From: a virus
Lineage: Duplodnaviria; Heunggongvirae; Uroviricota; Caudoviricetes
Length of the DNA: 64,000 nucleotides
Virus record (IMG/VR): IMGVR_UViG_3300033463_000003
Reading direction: 5' to 3' (one strand)
In this document: positions 4,529 to 63,460 of the stretch, piece by piece
Numbering within the stretch: the first letter of the stretch is position 1
Layout of the letters: each line of letters opens with the position of its first letter
Program-made: the position numbers and the translations under genes
The notes under the pieces: model-generated
The model's database searches: none
What the model was told of the DNA's origin: nothing
Seen by the model: the letters and a program-made list of their open reading frames with translations, nothing else

Positions 4529-4987
4529 ATGAAAAAAACTTGTTTTAATTGTGTACATTTTCATGGTTGTTTAGCTGAGGAAGATCCATCACAATATCAT
4601 ATTCACAATTATTGTGAAAAGTTTAATATGGTTTTACCACATGATTTAGAAAGTGAAGTTAATCGTTTTTTAGAATCAAATTGGAAAACTATGTGTAAAG
4701 CATCTATTGATTGTGATTATGGCGTAAATGATGACTTTGAAACTGGTGAGGCTGGTTGCTGGATGTTTGATGAAGCTAGTAAGCCATTTTGGTCAGATGA
4801 AAAGTTTGAAGAAAATAAAAAACATAATATAGAATTAGCAATAAAAACTTTAGAATATATGTTTGAAAAAGGTGAAGTAATAGATGATTATGAGGGAGAC
4901 ATTTATCTTCTTGATGATTACTATAATGAAGATGAACAGAAATATTTTAGAGATTTATTGATTAAACTAAAAGAGGAGAATAAATAA
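4529..4987 (+). CDS. Hypothetical Cys-containing protein
   Basis: ORF track; first gene after a TATAAT promoter. Confidence 0.6.
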   Translation: MKKTCFNCVHFHGCLAEEDPSQYHIHNYCEKFNMVLPHDLESEVNRFLESNWKTMCKASIDCDYGVNDDFETGEAGCWMFDEASKPFWSDEKFEENKKHNIELAIKTLEYMFEKGEVIDDYEGDIYLLDDYYNEDEQKYFRDLLIKLKEENK

Positions 4988-14688: not shown

Positions 14689-16170
14689 ATGTTTATAAAG
14701 AAAGTAGAACTAATCAAACCAATTAATTATCCTAAGGACATTCCAATGAATGAAGCTTTTGCTTATGGCCAAGATAATAGACTTTATAGAAGTTTAATTA
14801 GACTTTTTGAAGCCTTCTGGGTATATAATAAGAAAGAACTCTATTTAGTTGGGGGCGTTGTAAGAGACCTATTACTTGGCAAAGAGCCAAAAGATTATGA
14901 TTTAACAACTAATGCCACTCCAGAAGAAGTTAAAGCAATTTGTGAAGCTTTTGGATTAAAAACTTTTGACTCTGGAATTAAACATGGCACCTTAACTATT
15001 ATTGATGATTTTTATAAGCAAAGCTATGAAATTACAACTTACCGAACTGAATCTAAATATACGGATCATAGACATCCAGATAAAGTTGAGTTTGTAAGTA
15101 GCTTAGAAGAAGATTTAAAGCGCCGTGACTTCACAGTTAACTCATTTGCTTATAATCTATTAACACATGAAGTTTTAGCCTTAGAAGAGTCATTTTTCAA
15201 GGATTTAGAATATGGAATCATTAGAGCTGTTGGTGATCCAGCTGAAAGATATGAGGAAGATGCTTTAAGAATGTTACGTGCCTTACGTTTTATGGCCCAA
15301 TTAAATTTCAGCATTGAAAGATATACTTATTCAGCAATTGGTATGTGTAAAACTCTTCTTGGAAATATATCAAAAGAAAGAATCCGTGATGAATTAACCA
15401 AGATTTTATTAAGTGATAACCCTCAGATTTTAGAGCTTATTGCTTTGAATAGACTTGAAGATTATATTGGGGACTTTGAACATCCATACTTAAGTTGCAT
15501 GCTTGATTGTGAGCACCAAAACCCATGGCATTATACAGACGTTTTTCATCACACAATGGATGTAGTTAAAAGAGTGCCTAAAACATTTGAGCTTCGTTGG
15601 GCAGCACTTCTTCATGATATTGGAAAGCCTTTTGTTAAGCAATTAAAAGAAGGCACCAGAGATCATTATAGATATTTAGGCCACCAAGAAAAGTCAGCTG
15701 AAATTGCTCTTGAAATTATGGACCAACTTAAATTTTCAAATGACCAAAAAGATTTGATTTATAAGTTTGTTAAATACCATGATGATGATTTAGTTGAATG
15801 TAGAAATGCAACTTTTAAAAGAGTAGTTGTTGATATTGGCAAAGAGCACTTCAAGGATTTTATGAAACTAAGATTTGCTGATGCTATGGCTCACAGATTA
15901 ATTCACAGCACTAAATATGCCATTGAATATGTTGATAAAGTAATTGCCAGATTTGATAAGGTAATTTCTGAAGAGCAAGCCATGACTGTTAAAGATTTGG
16001 CTATTGATGGTAATGATATTCTTGCTGATGGTTTCTTACAAGGCAAAGAAATTGGTGAATGTTTAAGATGGATGCTTCAAATCGTGTTAGAGCACCCAGA
16101 ATACAATACACGTGAAAAATTATTAGAATATTTGGAGCTTTTTAAAGAAATGAGCTTCCAAAGTAGTTAA
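14689..16170 (+). CDS. cca: CCA-adding tRNA nucleotidyltransferase with HD domain
   Basis: VGGVVRD, DYD, RRDFTVN, EDALRMLRA, ERIRDE, LLHDIGK. Confidence 0.92.
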   Translation: MFIKKVELIKPINYPKDIPMNEAFAYGQDNRLYRSLIRLFEAFWVYNKKELYLVGGVVRDLLLGKEPKDYDLTTNATPEEVKAICEAFGLKTFDSGIKHGTLTIIDDFYKQSYEITTYRTESKYTDHRHPDKVEFVSSLEEDLKRRDFTVNSFAYNLLTHEVLALEESFFKDLEYGIIRAVGDPAERYEEDALRMLRALRFMAQLNFSIERYTYSAIGMCKTLLGNISKERIRDELTKILLSDNPQILELIALNRLEDYIGDFEHPYLSCMLDCEHQNPWHYTDVFHHTMDVVKRVPKTFELRWAALLHDIGKPFVKQLKEGTRDHYRYLGHQEKSAEIALEIMDQLKFSNDQKDLIYKFVKYHDDDLVECRNATFKRVVVDIGKEHFKDFMKLRFADAMAHRLIHSTKYAIEYVDKVIARFDKVISEEQAMTVKDLAIDGNDILADGFLQGKEIGECLRWMLQIVLEHPEYNTREKLLEYLELFKEMSFQSS

Positions 16171-32036: not shown

Positions 32037-32091
32037 GAAACTATACTTATTTCTACAGATAAACTTTGAAAATTTAGCCGCTAGTTAGTTC
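32037..32091 (+). ncRNA. Conserved carrier element copy F (no tRNA cargo)
   Basis: GAAACTATACTTATTTCTA...CTAGTTAGTTC; AACTA/TAGTT is a compensatory variant of the family stem; nested in ATGCTC/GAGCAT stem after a GCTAAATT motif. Confidence 0.65.
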
Positions 32092-55273: not shown

Positions 55274-55975
55274 TTGGATAGAGATATTGCATTAAAGTAT
55301 GTCAGACGAAAAAAACGCAATAAAAGAGTCGCAATAATTTCAGGCATTAGCACAATAATTCTTACAATATTCATAATTATTGCCTTCAGTCTGATTCATG
55401 TTGATAGATTTACTATCACAACAAGTGAAGAGCCTGAGCTGTGCTTAACACTTAATCAAAAAGAGTTTACAACTAAACTTACAGCTCCTCCACTTCTTAA
55501 AGCAACAGATACTCAATATACTTACGTAATTGAAAATCTGGATGAAACTGAAGGGAGTAAAAACACAGATTATTATTTCGCTTATTCCTTCTATTTAGGT
55601 GGCCAGGGTAAATCAGAGAGTATAAACTATAACTTAGCTTTATCGCTTGATAAATACTCAAATAACATTGAAGAAGCAATAAGAGTGATGATAATAAGGA
55701 ATGGTATAAAAGAAGTTTATGCTAAACCAGACCAAAATGGAGAAGCTAAACCAATCTATTACGGTGAAACACATGAAAGTGCACCAGAACAAATTGGAAT
55801 AACAACACCATTTAGATCAAATAAAAACATTATAGTTGAAGCGTACGAAATCAAACCTGGCGACTTTGATAAATACACAATTGTAATGTGGATCGACGGT
55901 TGGGAATCCGTCAACGAAATGAAGGGCGGGGTGTTCTCAGCCAATATAAAATTCTCAACTCATTCAATTAATTAA
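55274..55975 (+). CDS. Membrane-anchored extracellular protein
   Basis: Basic N-terminus plus one TM helix; TTG start with GGAGG RBS. Confidence 0.65.
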   Translation: MDRDIALKYVRRKKRNKRVAIISGISTIILTIFIIIAFSLIHVDRFTITTSEEPELCLTLNQKEFTTKLTAPPLLKATDTQYTYVIENLDETEGSKNTDYYFAYSFYLGGQGKSESINYNLALSLDKYSNNIEEAIRVMIIRNGIKEVYAKPDQNGEAKPIYYGETHESAPEQIGITTPFRSNKNIIVEAYEIKPGDFDKYTIVMWIDGWESVNEMKGGVFSANIKFSTHSIN

Positions 55976-55995
55976 TTTTAAGGAGAAAAAGAAAA

Positions 55996-56892
55996 ATGAA
56001 AAGAAAATCAAAAATCTTAGCAGCTGCTATTGGATTATTAGCATTTAGCACAGCTGCATCGATCACAGGCACAGTCGCTTGGTTCACAGCTAGTAATGTT
56101 GTTTCTGCCGAAGGTATTTATGTTATGGCAGAAAAAGAAGATGGTATTGTTATGGCTAATGAAGACTTTGATTCTTGGTCAACAGCTGTTCAAGCTTCAC
56201 ACGATGGCACAATTGGTAGTCCAGCGGCTCAAGCAGGATTTATTCCAACAAGTACAAAAGATGCTTCTACATGGGCACATGCTAGTGCAGTTCAAGCAGA
56301 CGATGAATTAGCTGTTGAATCTTCATATGCATTAGTTACACCAACATTAAATGGTTCCGATACTGGTATTTATAAAGCTTCTATTAACAATGTTGATAAG
56401 AATATTTATTTATTAAATACTTTCTATCTTAAATCAGCAAGCACAGACCCAATTTCTGGCAATTTATATTCTTATGTTAAAGCTGAAGTTGTTGGTACAA
56501 GCGTTAGTGTTGAATTAAATAAAGCTTTAAGAGTTTTAGTTAAATATGGCTCTGATGTTAATGTCTATGCTCCAATTAATGGTGCAACTACTTCTTACTC
56601 TGTTTGTACAGCTATTAACTCTGGTGATAATCCAGCAACCACAGATGTTACTGAAACAAGCTATCCAACAAAAGAATCTGTTTCAGCTCTTACTGGTGCC
56701 ACTACAAACTTATTAAAGAGTAATGTTACAATTCCAGCAAATAATCCAGATAGTGTAAATGTTAATACTTTCCCAGTAAACGTTTACTGCTACTTTGAAG
56801 GTGAAGATGCTGCTTGCTTCTCTAATAACATTAAAGCAACATTAGATCAACTTTCAATTACTGTTAAACTTGGAACTAGTTCAACTCTTTAG
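55996..56892 (+). CDS. Secreted fibre/pilin-like protein with SipW-cognate-type signal peptide
   Basis: Basic-hydrophobic leader ending GTVAWF; Thr/Ser/Asn-rich beta body. Confidence 0.6.
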   Translation: MKRKSKILAAAIGLLAFSTAASITGTVAWFTASNVVSAEGIYVMAEKEDGIVMANEDFDSWSTAVQASHDGTIGSPAAQAGFIPTSTKDASTWAHASAVQADDELAVESSYALVTPTLNGSDTGIYKASINNVDKNIYLLNTFYLKSASTDPISGNLYSYVKAEVVGTSVSVELNKALRVLVKYGSDVNVYAPINGATTSYSVCTAINSGDNPATTDVTETSYPTKESVSALTGATTNLLKSNVTIPANNPDSVNVNTFPVNVYCYFEGEDAACFSNNIKATLDQLSITVKLGTSSTL

Positions 56893-56967
56893 TATCTAGT
56901 TTAATTAAATAACTTAGGGCTAGATACGCCAATCTAGCCCTTTATTTCCCTTAAAGGAGGCTTAAGT

Positions 56968-57642
56968 ATGTCTAAGAAAACAATTAAATTAATTGCAGCT
57001 ACTTCTATGGCTATCTTTAATTTACTTGCTTTATTTGCTGGTACTTTTGCCTGGTTTGTAAATACTAAAAAAATAGATGGTAATAATATAGCTGTGCAAA
57101 TGGAAGCACATGAATTAAATTTATCACATAGTATTTATAAATTTGATGATAATTTAAAATCTATAGTAGAAGTTAATACTTTAGATTTAAATCCATATGA
57201 TACTGTTATTACTGAAAGAAATGAAAATAATGCTATCATAATTAAAGCAACTTTGCAGAGTAATATGTTTAGTGACCAAGCTACAGCTGATGTAAATATT
57301 AAATTACACTGCTTAGAAGAATATGCCACTACAGATTATCTTTCAAATATTACACATTTTAAGTTTGCCCCACTTTCTATTACTTCTACCAACATTACAG
57401 ATATTTACAATCAAGCTGTAGCTGGTTTAGAAAATGAGACACCATTAAAATTTATTACAACAGTTAAATTAACTGAAATTGAAACAACTATTATAAATGC
57501 GCCAATTATTAATAATCAAGTAGTTATTTATGGCTTATTTAACTATGATGAACCATTAATTACTGCACGTGGAATTGACTTTGAAGAAGCACCAACATTT
57601 AGTAATGATATAGACTGGTTGAGGTTTGGAATACATGATTAA
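56968..57642 (+). CDS. Secreted protein with SipW-cognate-type signal peptide
   Basis: Leader ending GTFAWF. Confidence 0.6.
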   Translation: MSKKTIKLIAATSMAIFNLLALFAGTFAWFVNTKKIDGNNIAVQMEAHELNLSHSIYKFDDNLKSIVEVNTLDLNPYDTVITERNENNAIIIKATLQSNMFSDQATADVNIKLHCLEEYATTDYLSNITHFKFAPLSITSTNITDIYNQAVAGLENETPLKFITTVKLTEIETTIINAPIINNQVVIYGLFNYDEPLITARGIDFEEAPTFSNDIDWLRFGIHD

Positions 57643-59953
57643 AAAACGTTTTGCTTATATTTTAATCACTTTATTCTCTGGACTATTATTAGCATTGTCT
57701 GGAATTACTTTAGCTTGGTTTTTCAATACTACTGCAGATATTAATATTACTGCTGATGGTGAAATTTTTACAAATTATTTTCATTGCGGTAATGGTTCTG
57801 AGGATGAGCCATATGTAATTACTCGCCCAGTGCATTTATATAACTTAACAAAACTATATGAAGAACTTCCAGATTTTGCTTCTTCTAATCATCATTTTCA
57901 ACTTGGTTATGATTTAGAAAATAATGGTAATTTAGAATTCTATTCTTATAATGATGCCGGAGTTCAACAATCGGGATATTCTGATAGTTTAAACATGAAT
58001 TATTATGAAAACTTTGTTCCAATTGGCAGCGAAATAAAGCCATTTGGAGGCACTTTCGATGGTTCTAGCTTAACTATTAATAACTTAAATATTTCAGGCT
58101 CAGGAATTTCAGATATTGGTGTTTTTGGTTATGTTACTAAAGATGCTGAAATTAAGGATTTATATATTAATAACTTAGAAATTGATATTACAGATGCAGT
58201 TGATGATGAACATAATCATAGTAATGCTTATGTTGGTTATATTGCAGGCCATATTGATGATGCAACCTGTTTTACAAATACTTATGTAAATAACTGTGAA
58301 ATTACTGGTAATTCAGTATTAACCAAAAATGACTGGGGCTATTTCGGTTATTGTAAAAATGCTGCTTCTATTCAAGCTTTTATTGATAAAGCTAAAGAAG
58401 GTCAAGGTGAGGCCAGCACTTGGGGTGGCTCAATCGCTTTTGATGCTTTCAACCAAAGATTATATCATCACATAAGTTCAGCAAGCAATATTAGATTTAA
58501 AAACGGAAATTCTACATATACAAACGGTTTAATTAGAACTGAGTCCGATAGTGATAGTGCTATTACAGTTTATAGAGGCGGCAATGCTTCTACAGCAGCT
58601 ACTTATTTAAGTCAAGACCCAGCAAATAATTATGTTGTTTATAATATGATTGGTGCTGGAACTCACTCAATTAATAATAAGCAAAATAATTCTGGCACTA
58701 CTTATACTGCTACTTCTGCTGTTAATGGTACTTATGAGCCATTAATTATTGATAGTGATTATACTGTTGCTGATAGAAATACAGGTTATTTAACTAGCTC
58801 ACAATATACTCAAAATGGTTCAAGCCACTACTACAATGCCATTGATGGTACTGTTCGTTCAGCCTCTTATCCAAATGGTCAAATTGCAAACTCTTTAGAT
58901 GACAGTTATCATAATCAAAGCAGTCTATATAATGGTTCAACCGGTGGCCCAAAATTTACTTATGATGGTAGTAAGCTTGAAATCTTAACAAACAGCTCTG
59001 CTTCTTATGGTGCCAGTAATTATAGATTAATTAGCGATGATTATAATTCAGGCCACACTGTTTCTAATTCAGCTTTAACAGGTTATACAAAAACTAACTA
59101 TGACACATTAGGCTTAAAAAGATATAAGTCAGCTAGAGCTCATTTAGAACAAGTTTTATCCGGAAGTCAATATGTTCATGGTATTCACTTTATGGGTGAG
59201 GCTCCTGCTGCAAATAAAACAGTTAATGTCCCCCATGCAGTGATTAATGGTGAAGTGAACTCTAATTATCCAGTTTTATTAAGCACTGTTGACTTCGTAG
59301 TTCAAGAAGAAGGCTATATCACCTTATTTGCTGGCGCTTATTATCCAGCAACGCAAACTACTATTGCTGATAGTTTCTTTGATTTATATAAAGTAAATAG
59401 AAATGCTAACGGTGGTATTGCTTCTATTCAAAAAGTATATAAAATTTATAAAGATTCTAATAATAATTATACTTATACAAGTTCAGCTAATCAAACAGTA
59501 TCAGGTGCAACTTTAATGTTTGATATGAGCTATTTAACAAGTCAGCCACCAAAGAATAATGTTGCTTACTATTTTGAAATTCCAGTTGATGCTGGTGAAT
59601 TTGCTATTGGTGCTGTATCTGGAAAAACTGCTGGCGCTTATTTAATGTATCTTGACTTAGGAACAAATGGTGGTGAGGGCCAAGAAGAAACATTGGTTGA
59701 TGATTTTGGCTCAGTTGAATATAGAACAACGCCAGATACAGTAGAACATAATATAGTTTTAATTACTTATATTCAACAAGCGTCTCAAACAAACACATTA
59801 TCAGTTGTTTACATTGAAAGTGAAAAAAGATATAATATTTCATATTCTGGCACACTTACTCAAATTATAGTTACAGTTTTAAATACTGACTATTATGTCT
59901 ATTTTAATGGCACTCTATTGCTGCAGGAAATTCAATCAAATTACTTAAATTAA
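57635..59953 (+). CDS. Large adhesin-like secreted protein with SipW-type leader and GLUG-like segment
   Basis: Leader ending ITLAWF; G.G...PY.I, F.G.FDG...TI.NL.I, G.FGY pattern. Confidence 0.6.
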   Translation: MIKKRFAYILITLFSGLLLALSGITLAWFFNTTADINITADGEIFTNYFHCGNGSEDEPYVITRPVHLYNLTKLYEELPDFASSNHHFQLGYDLENNGNLEFYSYNDAGVQQSGYSDSLNMNYYENFVPIGSEIKPFGGTFDGSSLTINNLNISGSGISDIGVFGYVTKDAEIKDLYINNLEIDITDAVDDEHNHSNAYVGYIAGHIDDATCFTNTYVNNCEITGNSVLTKNDWGYFGYCKNAASIQAFIDKAKEGQGEASTWGGSIAFDAFNQRLYHHISSASNIRFKNGNSTYTNGLIRTESDSDSAITVYRGGNASTAATYLSQDPANNYVVYNMIGAGTHSINNKQNNSGTTYTATSAVNGTYEPLIIDSDYTVADRNTGYLTSSQYTQNGSSHYYNAIDGTVRSASYPNGQIANSLDDSYHNQSSLYNGSTGGPKFTYDGSKLEILTNSSASYGASNYRLISDDYNSGHTVSNSALTGYTKTNYDTLGLKRYKSARAHLEQVLSGSQYVHGIHFMGEAPAANKTVNVPHAVINGEVNSNYPVLLSTVDFVVQEEGYITLFAGAYYPATQTTIADSFFDLYKVNRNANGGIASIQKVYKIYKDSNNNYTYTSSANQTVSGATLMFDMSYLTSQPPKNNVAYYFEIPVDAGEFAIGAVSGKTAGAYLMYLDLGTNGGEGQEETLVDDFGSVEYRTTPDTVEHNIVLITYIQQASQTNTLSVVYIESEKRYNISYSGTLTQIIVTVLNTDYYVYFNGTLLLQEIQSNYLN

Positions 59954-60230: not shown

Positions 60231-60476
60231 TGTAATCACCTGTGTCGGGGTTCCACAGCTATCTTGGCTGTCATTGCCTGCCCAGCTGCCTGAGCTAAAT
60301 GTATACTAGCTCATATAACCTGGTGTCATTGCGGGCTAAGTGTGGAATAACGAGCGTTAGCCAACCTAGTCGGAGGGTCAGATCGTAATCACCTGACGTT
60401 AAATCAAGGATACTCCGTGAATAAGTAGTTGGAGAAGAGTAGGATACAAATAGCAGAGCGCCCGCAGAAGATTACA
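60231..60476 (+). ncRNA. Candidate ~245-nt structured ncRNA
   Basis: GC-rich island closed by TGTAATC/GATTACA; internal stems GCGGG/CCCGC, CCAAC/GTTGG, CGGAG/CTCCG, GAGCTA/TAGCTC, TTCCACA/TGTGGAA; sigma70-like promoter upstream. Confidence 0.6.
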
Positions 60477-60548
60477 GCAATTCTTAAAAAAGAATGTGCT
60501 AAATTAAAAGTAAGCAAGTTAGCAAGGCTTACAACAGCTAATTTGCAT

Positions 60549-60605
60549 GAGCCTATACTTATTTCTATTTTTAAAGAGATCATGAAGAAAAAGGTTAGTT
60601 AGGCC
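60549..60605 (+). ncRNA. Conserved carrier element copy A (short cargo)
   Basis: GAGCCTATACTTATTTCT...GTTAGTTAGGCC. Confidence 0.7.
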
Positions 60606-60636: not shown

Positions 60637-60717
60637 ATGTTAAGAAATGTTACTGTTAACGTTAGACCTACAGCAACAGCCAAACCAGCATTTGGTACTT
60701 TTGAACATGCTTGTTAA
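60637..60717 (+). CDS. Small 26-aa ORF
   Basis: AAGGAG RBS; followed by a terminator at about 60748-60786. Confidence 0.35.
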   Translation: MLRNVTVNVRPTATAKPAFGTFEHAC

Positions 60718-61108: not shown

Positions 61109-61184
61109 GGGGCCATAGCTCAATTGGGAGAGCGCCACATTAGCATTGTGGAGGTTGCGAGATCGTCCCTCGTTGGTTCCACCA
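61109..61184 (+). tRNA. tRNA-Ala(AGC)
   Basis: CCACA-TT-AGC-AT-TGTGG, G3.U70, CCA; T-loop ATCGTCC. Confidence 0.85.
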
Positions 61185-61189
61185 TTATA

Positions 61190-61307
61190 GAACCTGTGCT
61201 TATTTCTAATAGGGCAAGCAGGTTGTCGCTGGTTCGAATCCAGCCTTCCCAACCATTATCGGGAAGTAGCTCAGTTGGCAGAGCACCCGCAAAATATTAG
61301 CCAGGTC
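61190..61307 (+). ncRNA. Carrier element copy B enclosing a circularly permuted tRNA (anticodon degenerate, possibly GGC)
   Basis: 3' half (T-arm, CTTCCCA-ACCA, ending 61255) precedes 5' half (CGGGAAG, D-arm, CCCGC; 61260-61290); closing stem ACCTG/CAGGT. Confidence 0.8.
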
Positions 61308-61559: not shown

Positions 61560-61636
61560 GCCCCCATAACTCAACTGGATAGAGTAACGGTCTTCTAAAC
61601 CGTAAGTTGAAGGTCCGAGTCCTTCTGGGGGCGCCA
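61560..61636 (+). tRNA. tRNA-Arg(TCT)
   Basis: ACGGT-CT-TCT-AA-ACCGT, CCA. Confidence 0.9.
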
Positions 61637-61639
61637 TTA

Positions 61640-61697
61640 GAGCCTATACTTATTTCTAGCTTCAAGCAAACAACTTTTAATTGTTCATAGTTAGGCC
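61640..61697 (+). ncRNA. Carrier element copy C (two mini-hairpins as cargo)
   Basis: GAGCCTATACTTATTTCTA...ATAGTTAGGCC, spaced between two tRNAs. Confidence 0.7.
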
Positions 61698-61941: not shown

Positions 61942-61971
61942 TTAAAATAAATATATTGTATAATATATTAT

Positions 61972-62047
61972 GCCGGCTTAGCTCAGCTGTTAGAGCAACG
62001 CACTAGTAATGCGTAGGTCGGGGGTTAGAGTCCCTCAGCCGGCACCA
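61972..62047 (+). tRNA. tRNA-Thr(AGT)
   Basis: ACGCA-CT-AGT-AA-TGCGT, CCA. Confidence 0.85.
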
Positions 62048-62050
62048 TCA

Positions 62051-62158
62051 GAGCCCATGCTTATTTCTTTCGGCTTCTAACCGGGTGGTCGTTGGTTCGA
62101 ATCCAACCGTTCCAGTTGGAACGTAGCTCAGTGGGAGAGCACCTTATTTAGCTGGGCC
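62051..62158 (+). ncRNA. Carrier element copy D enclosing circularly permuted tRNA-Arg(TCT)
   Basis: 62071-62115 = positions 29-73; 62117-62143 = positions 1-28; rejoined CC|CGG-CT-TCT-AA-CCGGG; acceptor TGGAACG/CGTTCCA perfect; no CCA; closing stem GCCCA/TGGGC. Confidence 0.88.
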
Positions 62159-63358: not shown

Positions 63359-63362
63359 AAAT

Positions 63363-63452
63363 GGTCTATTAGCTCAGTCTGGTAGAGCGGCCGACCAAAG
63401 TGTCGGTGACAAACAGCGCGCGAGTGCATTGGTTCAAATCCAATATAGACCA
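63363..63452 (+). tRNA. Atypical tRNA-like RNA (6-nt anticodon loop, 20-nt extra region, no CCA)
   Basis: Perfect acceptor GGTCTAT/ATAGACC, D- and T-arms; GCCGAC-CAAAGT-GTCGGT arm plus GCGC-GCGA-GTGC hairpin. Confidence 0.6.
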
Positions 63453-63460
63453 TCGTATAT

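Follow-up and report, generated by a model that had tools for sequence, protein, structure and literature searches.

Permuted tRNA genes of red and green algae and of Thermofilum place the 3' half ahead of the 5' half and connect the acceptor ends through a linker, and their transcripts are spliced at a bulge-helix-bulge into working tRNAs. In YrlA (RF02553), the order is T arm, closed acceptor stem and D arm, mounted via the anticodon stem on a terminal helix. YrlA is found with Ro60/Rsr, in phages among other places, with several RNAs per locus, some of them without the tRNA domain (PMC4201824), and lies beside a gene for a large helical-repeat protein and RNA-repair genes. In vivo, YrlA associates with Ro60, and it contains pseudouridine 55 and dihydrouridine. 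A further described case is phage phiLo, in which Ro60 is accompanied by the adjacent stem-bulge-stem RNAs Yrl1 and Yrl2 (PMC12135203; 9l5y).

The element described here lies in a 64,000-nt stretch of phage DNA (the window) and shares these properties with YrlA, including the nucleotides of the tertiary pairs and the setting beside a large helical-repeat protein and RNA-repair genes; with phiLo it shares a phage helical protein and adjacent stem-bulge-stem RNAs. It differs from YrlA in its terminal stem (hereafter the handle), in keeping the full 7-nt anticodon loop and in copy number, which rises to a dozen per phage. The phiLo Ro60 has a vWA domain and needs a CGAA motif, in place of which TerD, a UAUUUC box and RNAs with tRNA parts were found here. 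In contrast to the algal and Thermofilum genes, the position of the break is not constant here, the identity elements are not coupled, and the stem made by the ends is a different one that is conserved.

Against the Rfam model of YrlA, the element scored 41.7 bits and its relatives 31.9–43 (gathering 69), the match in the relatives covering mostly the tRNA part (model 23–88). The Ro stem of the model aligned with non-pairs. The GNCGAA of the Ro60-binding motif GNCGAAN0-1G was found in none of 125 handles within the first 30 nt. No gene of Ro60 size lies within 4 kb downstream of the element, and the genes called there gave no match to TROVE (PF05731), which was absent as well from nine related phage records (one complete with terminal repeats) and from the complete genomes of phages Weasels2 and RcXuper. 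Where the Ro60 partner of YrlA has a C-terminal vWA domain with MIDAS, the protein encoded beside the handle has TerD and no TROVE match. The element resembles YrlA with Ro60 in plan but scores below gathering, lacks the GNCGAA motif and has no TROVE/vWA partner. Within an incomplete coverage of the literature, so that absence is not certain, no description was found of a phage permuted tRNA, of TerD with Ro60 or Y RNA, or of the handle.

The window belongs to a large tailed phage, also assembled as a 225.7-kb ENA contig, that carries Pol A, DnaB, primase, RecA, a CCA-type enzyme and a long tRNA array. Features of the element and its surroundings, in window coordinates, are as follows.

14689–16170, + strand: phage tRNA nucleotidyltransferase (CCA-adding type)
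61560–61636: linear tRNA-Arg(TCT)
61972–62047, + strand: tRNA-Thr(AGU), ending 3 nt before the handle; TATAAT at 61959–61964
62051–62158, + strand: whole RNA element (handle and permuted tRNA cargo), a larger unit than the tRNA part alone
62051–62068, + strand: handle 5' strand (G, bulged A, 5-bp helix, bulged U, 3-bp helix, unpaired UAUUUCU)
62071–62143, + strand: permuted tRNA, the cargo of the 62051–62158 RNA
62071–62085, + strand: tRNA positions 29–43, anticodon arm, with the intact loop CUUCUAA at 62074–62080 and UCU at 62076–62078
62086–62107, + strand: variable loop (C48) and T arm with a UUCGAAU loop
62108–62123, + strand: acceptor stem sealed as a hairpin (66–72, G73, one U, 1–7), without CCA
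62124–62143, + strand: U8-A9, D arm (loop AGUGGGA), A26 and C27-C28, the last pairing with G42-G43 across the break
62150–62158, + strand: handle 3' strand; eight helix pairs with pair probabilities of 0.8–0.99

A first-pass annotation, made from the letters of the window, had described a permuted tRNA-Arg(UCU) in the order 29–73, a 1-nt linker and 1–28, and this order was confirmed (62071–62115, one U at 62116, 62117–62143). When the halves were un-permuted and CCA was appended, ARAGORN returned tRNA-Arg(tct) with all four stems fully paired, and the pairing was retained and covaried in 16 elements. The linear tRNA-Arg(TCT) that the annotation placed at 61560 was likewise present. Its coordinates for the element, 62051–62158, enclose the terminal stem, but that stem, which defines the family, and the partner protein went unmentioned. 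Where it had described a 7-bp acceptor hairpin without CCA, the sealed end and the missing CCA were upheld but the predicted fold had 6 bp and an AGUU loop; 7 bp would demand a 2-nt loop.

The Levitt pair is G15:C48 in this element and A:U in four relatives, and position 20 is G as opposed to A20 in the real linear Arg tRNA at 61560. Folding predictions that counted neither tertiary contacts nor modifications gave the split anticodon stem weak pair probabilities (0.12–0.38), and a free energy of –29.0 kcal/mol for the proposed model compared with –34.2 kcal/mol for the MFE. The element is probably co-transcribed with tRNA-Thr(AGU); in a promoter scan of the locus the signal was not above chance.

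The handle and the adjacent gene

The handle stem is formed by 62051–62061 with 62150–62158, opens with a G-C pair and bears the conserved UAUUUC. Its 5' box occurs six times in the window (0.06 expected), with a complementary 3' strand at each occurrence, and a descriptor found 37 clean copies in the window and five related 147–237-kb phage contigs compared with 0–1 per shuffled genome. Over all loci, 91 distinct handles were collected from phages and gut and rumen bacteria, and 125 after a further RNA-based search; in a loose-pattern search for further elements, most matches were due to chance and were removed by a stem-pairing filter. GA, U8 and CUUAUUUC were invariant in 91 of 91 handles, an invariance imposed in part by the search, whose descriptor tolerated one mismatch. 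The 5-bp helix covaried at five pairs among the 91 copies, one of which was U-A in 52, A-U in 24, C-G in 8 and G-C in 7. No Rfam family matched the handle. Group II intron domain V, group I P7 and known small ribozymes were considered as identities and were dropped by eye, the bulge being on the opposite strand or a key pair varying.

The five further handles of the window are as follows.

32037–32091, + strand: handle and 28-nt cargo, outside the tRNA array
60549–60605, + strand: handle and 30-nt AU-rich cargo
61190–61307, + strand: handle and permuted tRNA body; the acceptor loop contains ACCA, and the anticodon arm is degenerate
61640–61697, + strand: handle, small hairpin and Lys(UUU) anticodon stem-loop
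62771–62891, + strand: handle and permuted Phe(GAA)-type tRNA with a 28/29 break and GCCA in the acceptor loop

Four of the six window handles begin 3–5 nt past the CCA of a tRNA. A short CCUACAGCAAC-containing stretch was noted before a terminator at 60665–60685 and also after the matching handle in contig L025. In two other contigs (L031:10895 and, on the minus strand, L002:1100), a whole handle RNA lies within the acceptor loop of a permuted tRNA, 3' of its CCA. The nested RNA sits directly upstream of rtcB, as was confirmed in genome G001; in G004, the gene start alone was seen.

The continuation of the window was traced via contigs L113 and L143 (the L143 overlap was identical at 4893 of 4893 positions), and window and L143 combined hold ten handles. 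The handle adjoins one gene, which encodes a helical-repeat and TerD protein of about 660–670 aa, and in the window's phage this gene is found 9 kb beyond the window, closely preceded by two handles.

L143:13897–15870: partner gene of the window's phage, 657 aa

In four phage genomes, the handle was directly upstream of a gene of about 670 aa. Among loci fetched by protein, it was present in 15 of 15 viral (about nine distinct) and 11 of 11 GTDB loci, or 26 of 26, the GTDB labels being Christensenellaceae, Anaeroplasmataceae, Erysipelotrichaceae, Lachnospiraceae, Clostridia and Bacteroidales; some of these may be phage contigs binned into MAGs. One GTDB locus (L141) carries a permuted tRNA. 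In the reverse direction, the partner gene was present in seven of ten further loci found by RNA, and in G003 a handle without a detected partner gene lies 0.7 kb from the contig end. In nearly all loci, a handle precedes the gene by about 100–260 nt; most bacteria have this copy alone, with an 18–27-nt cargo. RNA-repair genes are close by. A Pnkp-Rnl1 fusion gene lies 1.1 kb downstream of the L143 partner gene, and RtcB adjoins the handle or the partner gene in G001 (after the nested handle), L133 and Weasels2. A phage Thg1 (tRNA-His guanylyltransferase) was noted between the tRNA array and the partner gene (L143:8105–9040).

No significant Pfam match and no PDB sequence match were obtained for the partner protein. 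The model of a homologue to which the L143 protein is 56% identical (pLDDT 94.7) has a helical N-terminal part, with helical repeats over residues 130–390, and a TerD beta-sandwich at residues 427–586 (Z 13.5, rmsd 2.2, 145 aligned). Its longest structural alignments were to Xenopus Ro60, Deinococcus Rsr and phage phiLo Ro60 (1yvp, 2nvo, 9l5y), over 205–298 residues compared with 149 or fewer for others, at weak scores (Z 4.5–6.6, rmsd 5.4–6.5) under the tool's threshold for helical folds. Foldseek gave no Ro60 among the matches listed for the whole model and no match at E ≤ 0.001 for the N-terminal model. A ring of HEAT repeats like that of Ro60 is at most suggested for the partner by this modelling. 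The nearest named family was MXAN_6230/SCO0854 Prok-RING_4 (NF041916, PF14447; E 1e-18, far below cut-off; TM 0.79 to its predicted structure). Unlike that family, the partner had no detected RING domain. The architecture of the family is one that, we take it, Pfam describes as ROT/TROVE-like repeats with TerD, possibly in an RNA-processing complex, and no RNA partner was named for it in the incomplete literature covered.

Distant homologues of the partner (26–29% identity, over part of the protein) are present in two cultured phages, as gp266 of Rhodococcus phage Weasels2 and gene 7 of Rhodobacter phage RcXuper, and both loci were selected by protein alone. Immediately after gp266 there are four UACUUC-box repeats, of which three fold into an 8-bp terminal stem, and inside one repeat (record 85644–85761) is a permuted tRNA whose loop, CUCUUAA, likewise has U36-A37-A38; RtcB follows 3 kb beyond these handle-like repeats. 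In RcXuper, four copies of a similar box occur upstream of gene 7, the first preceding a YrlA-like domain, and the stems are less clear. We infer that the stems of both phages are homologous to the handle. A permuted two-piece tmRNA was noted directly upstream of the handle-like array and partner homologue of RcXuper (L372:1390–1806).

Cargo classes

The cargoes of the 91 handles comprised 55 short cargoes, 25 permuted tRNA bodies, four T-arm minihelices, two normal-order tRNA bodies without CCA and five others. Canonical anticodon stem-loops, chiefly Lys UUU, Pro UGG and Cys GCA, were present in 16 of 41 non-redundant short cargoes compared with 2.0 in shuffles (maximum 7, 500 shuffles). An anticodon loop was absent from 25 of the 55 short cargoes, from the T-arm minihelices and from the 18–27-nt cargoes of most bacterial copies. 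In the permuted class, acceptor stem sequences were wholly different, yet 7 bp were retained in 18 of 25.

The loop C-U-N-N-U-A-A was common to 16 of the 22 permuted elements with an intact anticodon loop, among them the 62051 element. Anticodons in this subclass were GUU (four), GCU (three), UCU (three), UUU (two), UGU (two), GGU and UAU. Thus, positions 34 and 35 vary freely and the acceptor stems are unrelated, whereas C32-U33-U36-A37-A38 are fixed in 16 of 16 elements of a subclass that was chosen by that loop, nine members having been found without a loop constraint and seven by a pattern that fixed CU and AA, not U36; shared ancestry contributes to the fixed U36-A37-A38. In the alignment of the 16 elements, 98.3% of cells paired in the proposed structure compared with 78.2% in shuffles (0 of 500 reached this value), the structure having been derived from the same 16 sequences, which favours it over slid controls. 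Both sides changed at 17 of 30 pairs, among them all seven of the acceptor stem and some that span the break; the D arm was invariant. The break between positions 28 and 29 that the first-pass annotation had reported holds for the 62051 copy; among the 16 subclass elements it is 28/29 in seven and 29/30 in nine, and in the seven the junction can slide because the next base can pair (G41-U).

CCA was present in none of the 16, and NCCA in register in 13 of 41 permuted elements overall. Together with the hairpin at the acceptor end and the missing A20, this supports the view of an uncharged tRNA mimic put forward in the annotation, and the 62051 element is probably never charged. Its proposal that nucleases open the RNA and that the phage CCA enzyme completes it is unlikely for this copy, with its tight acceptor loop, and the enzyme probably does not act on it; for the siblings at 61190 and 62771, which have NCCA in place, opening and CCA finishing are plausible.

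A20 is a determinant for ArgRS. The 62051 element is not Arg-specific because elements with the same flanks read UGU, GGU or UAU instead of UCU, and also because it has G20; a ligand of ArgRS, another role that had been put forward, is unlikely on the same grounds. In L326, acceptor, T and D arms nearly identical to those of the 62051 copy accompany a different anticodon arm. U36-A37-A38 marks ANN-decoding tRNAs that bear t6A37, and the element probably mimics anticodon arms of this class. ANN decoders are t6A substrates (PMC12632869). ROOL RNAs (about 200 bits) were noted in the tRNA arrays of the closest relatives of the element (L326:3194–3795 and L347:4381–4973).

Possible functions of the element

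The element probably belongs to a modular family of protein-bound small RNAs on the Y-RNA plan, in which a constant terminal handle carries variable tRNA-derived cargo. Given membership of such a family, a role as bait or in repair is somewhat favoured. Our preferred reading of the whole, offered tentatively since both binding and function are deduced, is a protein-bound anticodon bait against anticodon nucleases; among the roles that the first-pass annotation had listed, an anticodon-nuclease decoy also fared best. Cutting of the anticodon loop is a recurrent antiphage strategy (PMC13692257), and cleavage of tRNA-Lys by PrrC is improved by t6A37 (PMC13191261). In contrast with YrlA, the break has moved from the loop to the 5' strand of the anticodon stem, and an intact loop is therefore possible.

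In this mechanism, the 62051 RNA would be released by cleavage from the transcript of tRNA-Thr(AGU), the CCA of which lies 3 nt upstream. The helical/TerD protein would bind the handle in the way that Ro60 binds a Y-RNA stem, shielding the paired ends. The cargo would fold as an L-shaped tRNA, unchargeable because its acceptor end is a hairpin, and would display a free C-U-N-N-U-A-A loop, which is that of ANN decoders of the t6A37 class (Lys, Arg, Thr, Asn, Ser, Ile). This loop would bait host anticodon nucleases, so that the particle would act in tRNA conflict and repair, and the handle would keep a cut RNA together for possible resealing by the phage Pnkp-Rnl1 (RtcB in relatives). A bait for anticodon nucleases is proposed because the anticodons are diverse, some cargoes are bare stem-loops and repair ligases are encoded; the bait cannot serve the whole handle family, because many cargoes have no anticodon loop. 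In a wider form, which we regard as possible and rather doubtful, the handle RNAs would make up a second, Ro60-independent class of handle-plus-cargo RNP, its protein-protected stem serving to display a collection of tRNA parts and its 62051 member as a renewable decoy, resealed by phage ligases, that draws host anticodon nucleases off all t6A-class tRNAs.

The same RNP could instead carry its cargo as a RYPER-like tether or adaptor for bringing in a host RNase (PNPase or RNase J/Y), the ribosome or an enzyme that modifies tRNA (such as the t6A machinery), with the loop as docking site. The t6A enzymes also read U36-A37-A38, so that the fixed loop speaks for such docking as well. The topology equals that of YrlA. 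The tether between Rsr and PNPase is a Y RNA (PMC4201824), and in phiLo the phage Ro60, together with its Yrl RNAs, attaches to host PNPase and slows it (PMC12135203). The invariant D arm, the retained T loop and the kept Levitt pair argue in the same direction and were counted against a bait, as an elbow-binding partner of the kind proposed for YrlA would also fit the D arm and Levitt pair. A tether leaves unexplained the ten copies of one phage, with their different anticodon arms, and the frequency of cargoes that consist of a bare anticodon stem-loop and have no elbow; it is judged unlikely. A mainly cis-acting handle, by which the protein regulates itself via its own leader or a nuclease processes tRNA transcripts while cargoes merely stabilise or titrate, would account for the position upstream of the gene at nearly all loci, for the sole copy in most bacteria and for the window copies that begin just after a tRNA CCA; we consider it improbable, since the cargoes show structural selection of their own and copies also occur downstream of the gene, far from any ORF, and in one case nested in another's acceptor loop.

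The presence of all positions 1–73 and the score as tRNA-Arg once un-permuted would suit a genuine permuted tRNA gene of the Cyanidioschyzon or Thermofilum type. Its transcript would lose the handle, have 28 ligated to 29 and its acceptor loop opened, and receive CCA, giving a working tRNA-Arg. Besides a CCA enzyme, the phage encodes Thg1 and an RNA ligase, and in M. smegmatis RNase P cleaves YrlA, which also acquires CCA (PMC4201824). Such a gene is the most improbable of the readings, as the break and its distance to the handle vary, no bulge-helix-bulge motif is present, anticodon and acceptor stem are uncoupled (L326) with identity elements unmatched, A20 is missing, just 2 nt separate 72 from 1, all 16 subclass elements lack CCA, and the same handle bears cargoes unable to become tRNA. 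Scarcely more probable is that the handle is a new small ribozyme or a ligation or circularisation signal, the linked protein being a maturase or incidental. For this, there are the unpaired run that never varies, the compact stem with its two bulges, a short pseudoknot that AGA and UCU could form (with no covariation there to test) and the RNA ligases nearby; against it, there is no Rfam ribozyme match, and the box becomes UACUUC where the protein homologue is distant, which suggests recognition by protein.

Known phage answers to tRNA-cutting defences are spare tRNAs and repair enzymes, and the preferred reading of a protein-bound bait, an uncharged RNA on a protein platform, would be a different strategy if true. 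RNA-based counter-defence by a resealable decoy may be new, no earlier description having been found. On one constant handle, the cargo ranges naturally between an anticodon arm alone and an entire tRNA body, so that the family makes the purpose of the tRNA-like domain of bacterial Y RNAs testable, and related loci in two cultured phages allow such tests now. The handle RNA is also a candidate RNA partner for an uncharacterised helical/TerD protein family of many gut and rumen bacteria.

Other features of the window and related genomes

The phage carries A34 tRNAs for Ala (AGC), Thr (AGU) and Leu (AAG), at window positions 61109, 61972 and 62212, and an Ile(UAU) tRNA (L143:7404), all rare in bacteria, which may hint at the host group. 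A tRNA-like gene with an expanded anticodon arm, to which ARAGORN assigns no anticodon, was noted at 63362–63454. In G001, genes of the structural region (L057–L068) were broken up under table 11 while their orthologues were whole in G002, which suggests stop-codon recoding in the late genes of G001. Two stretches without Rfam match are possible non-coding RNAs, namely an ORF-free, GC-richer stretch after a promoter-like site (60240–60480) and, about 6–8 kb past the window end, a possible large one in about 1.9 kb without called genes that is GC-richer than its surroundings (L143:11300–13200). A c-di-GMP-I-GGC riboswitch-like match, unusual for a phage (55095–55170; 54.5 bits, gathering 59), lies just upstream of a four-gene operon (55274–59953) that encodes proteins with hydrophobic N-termini.
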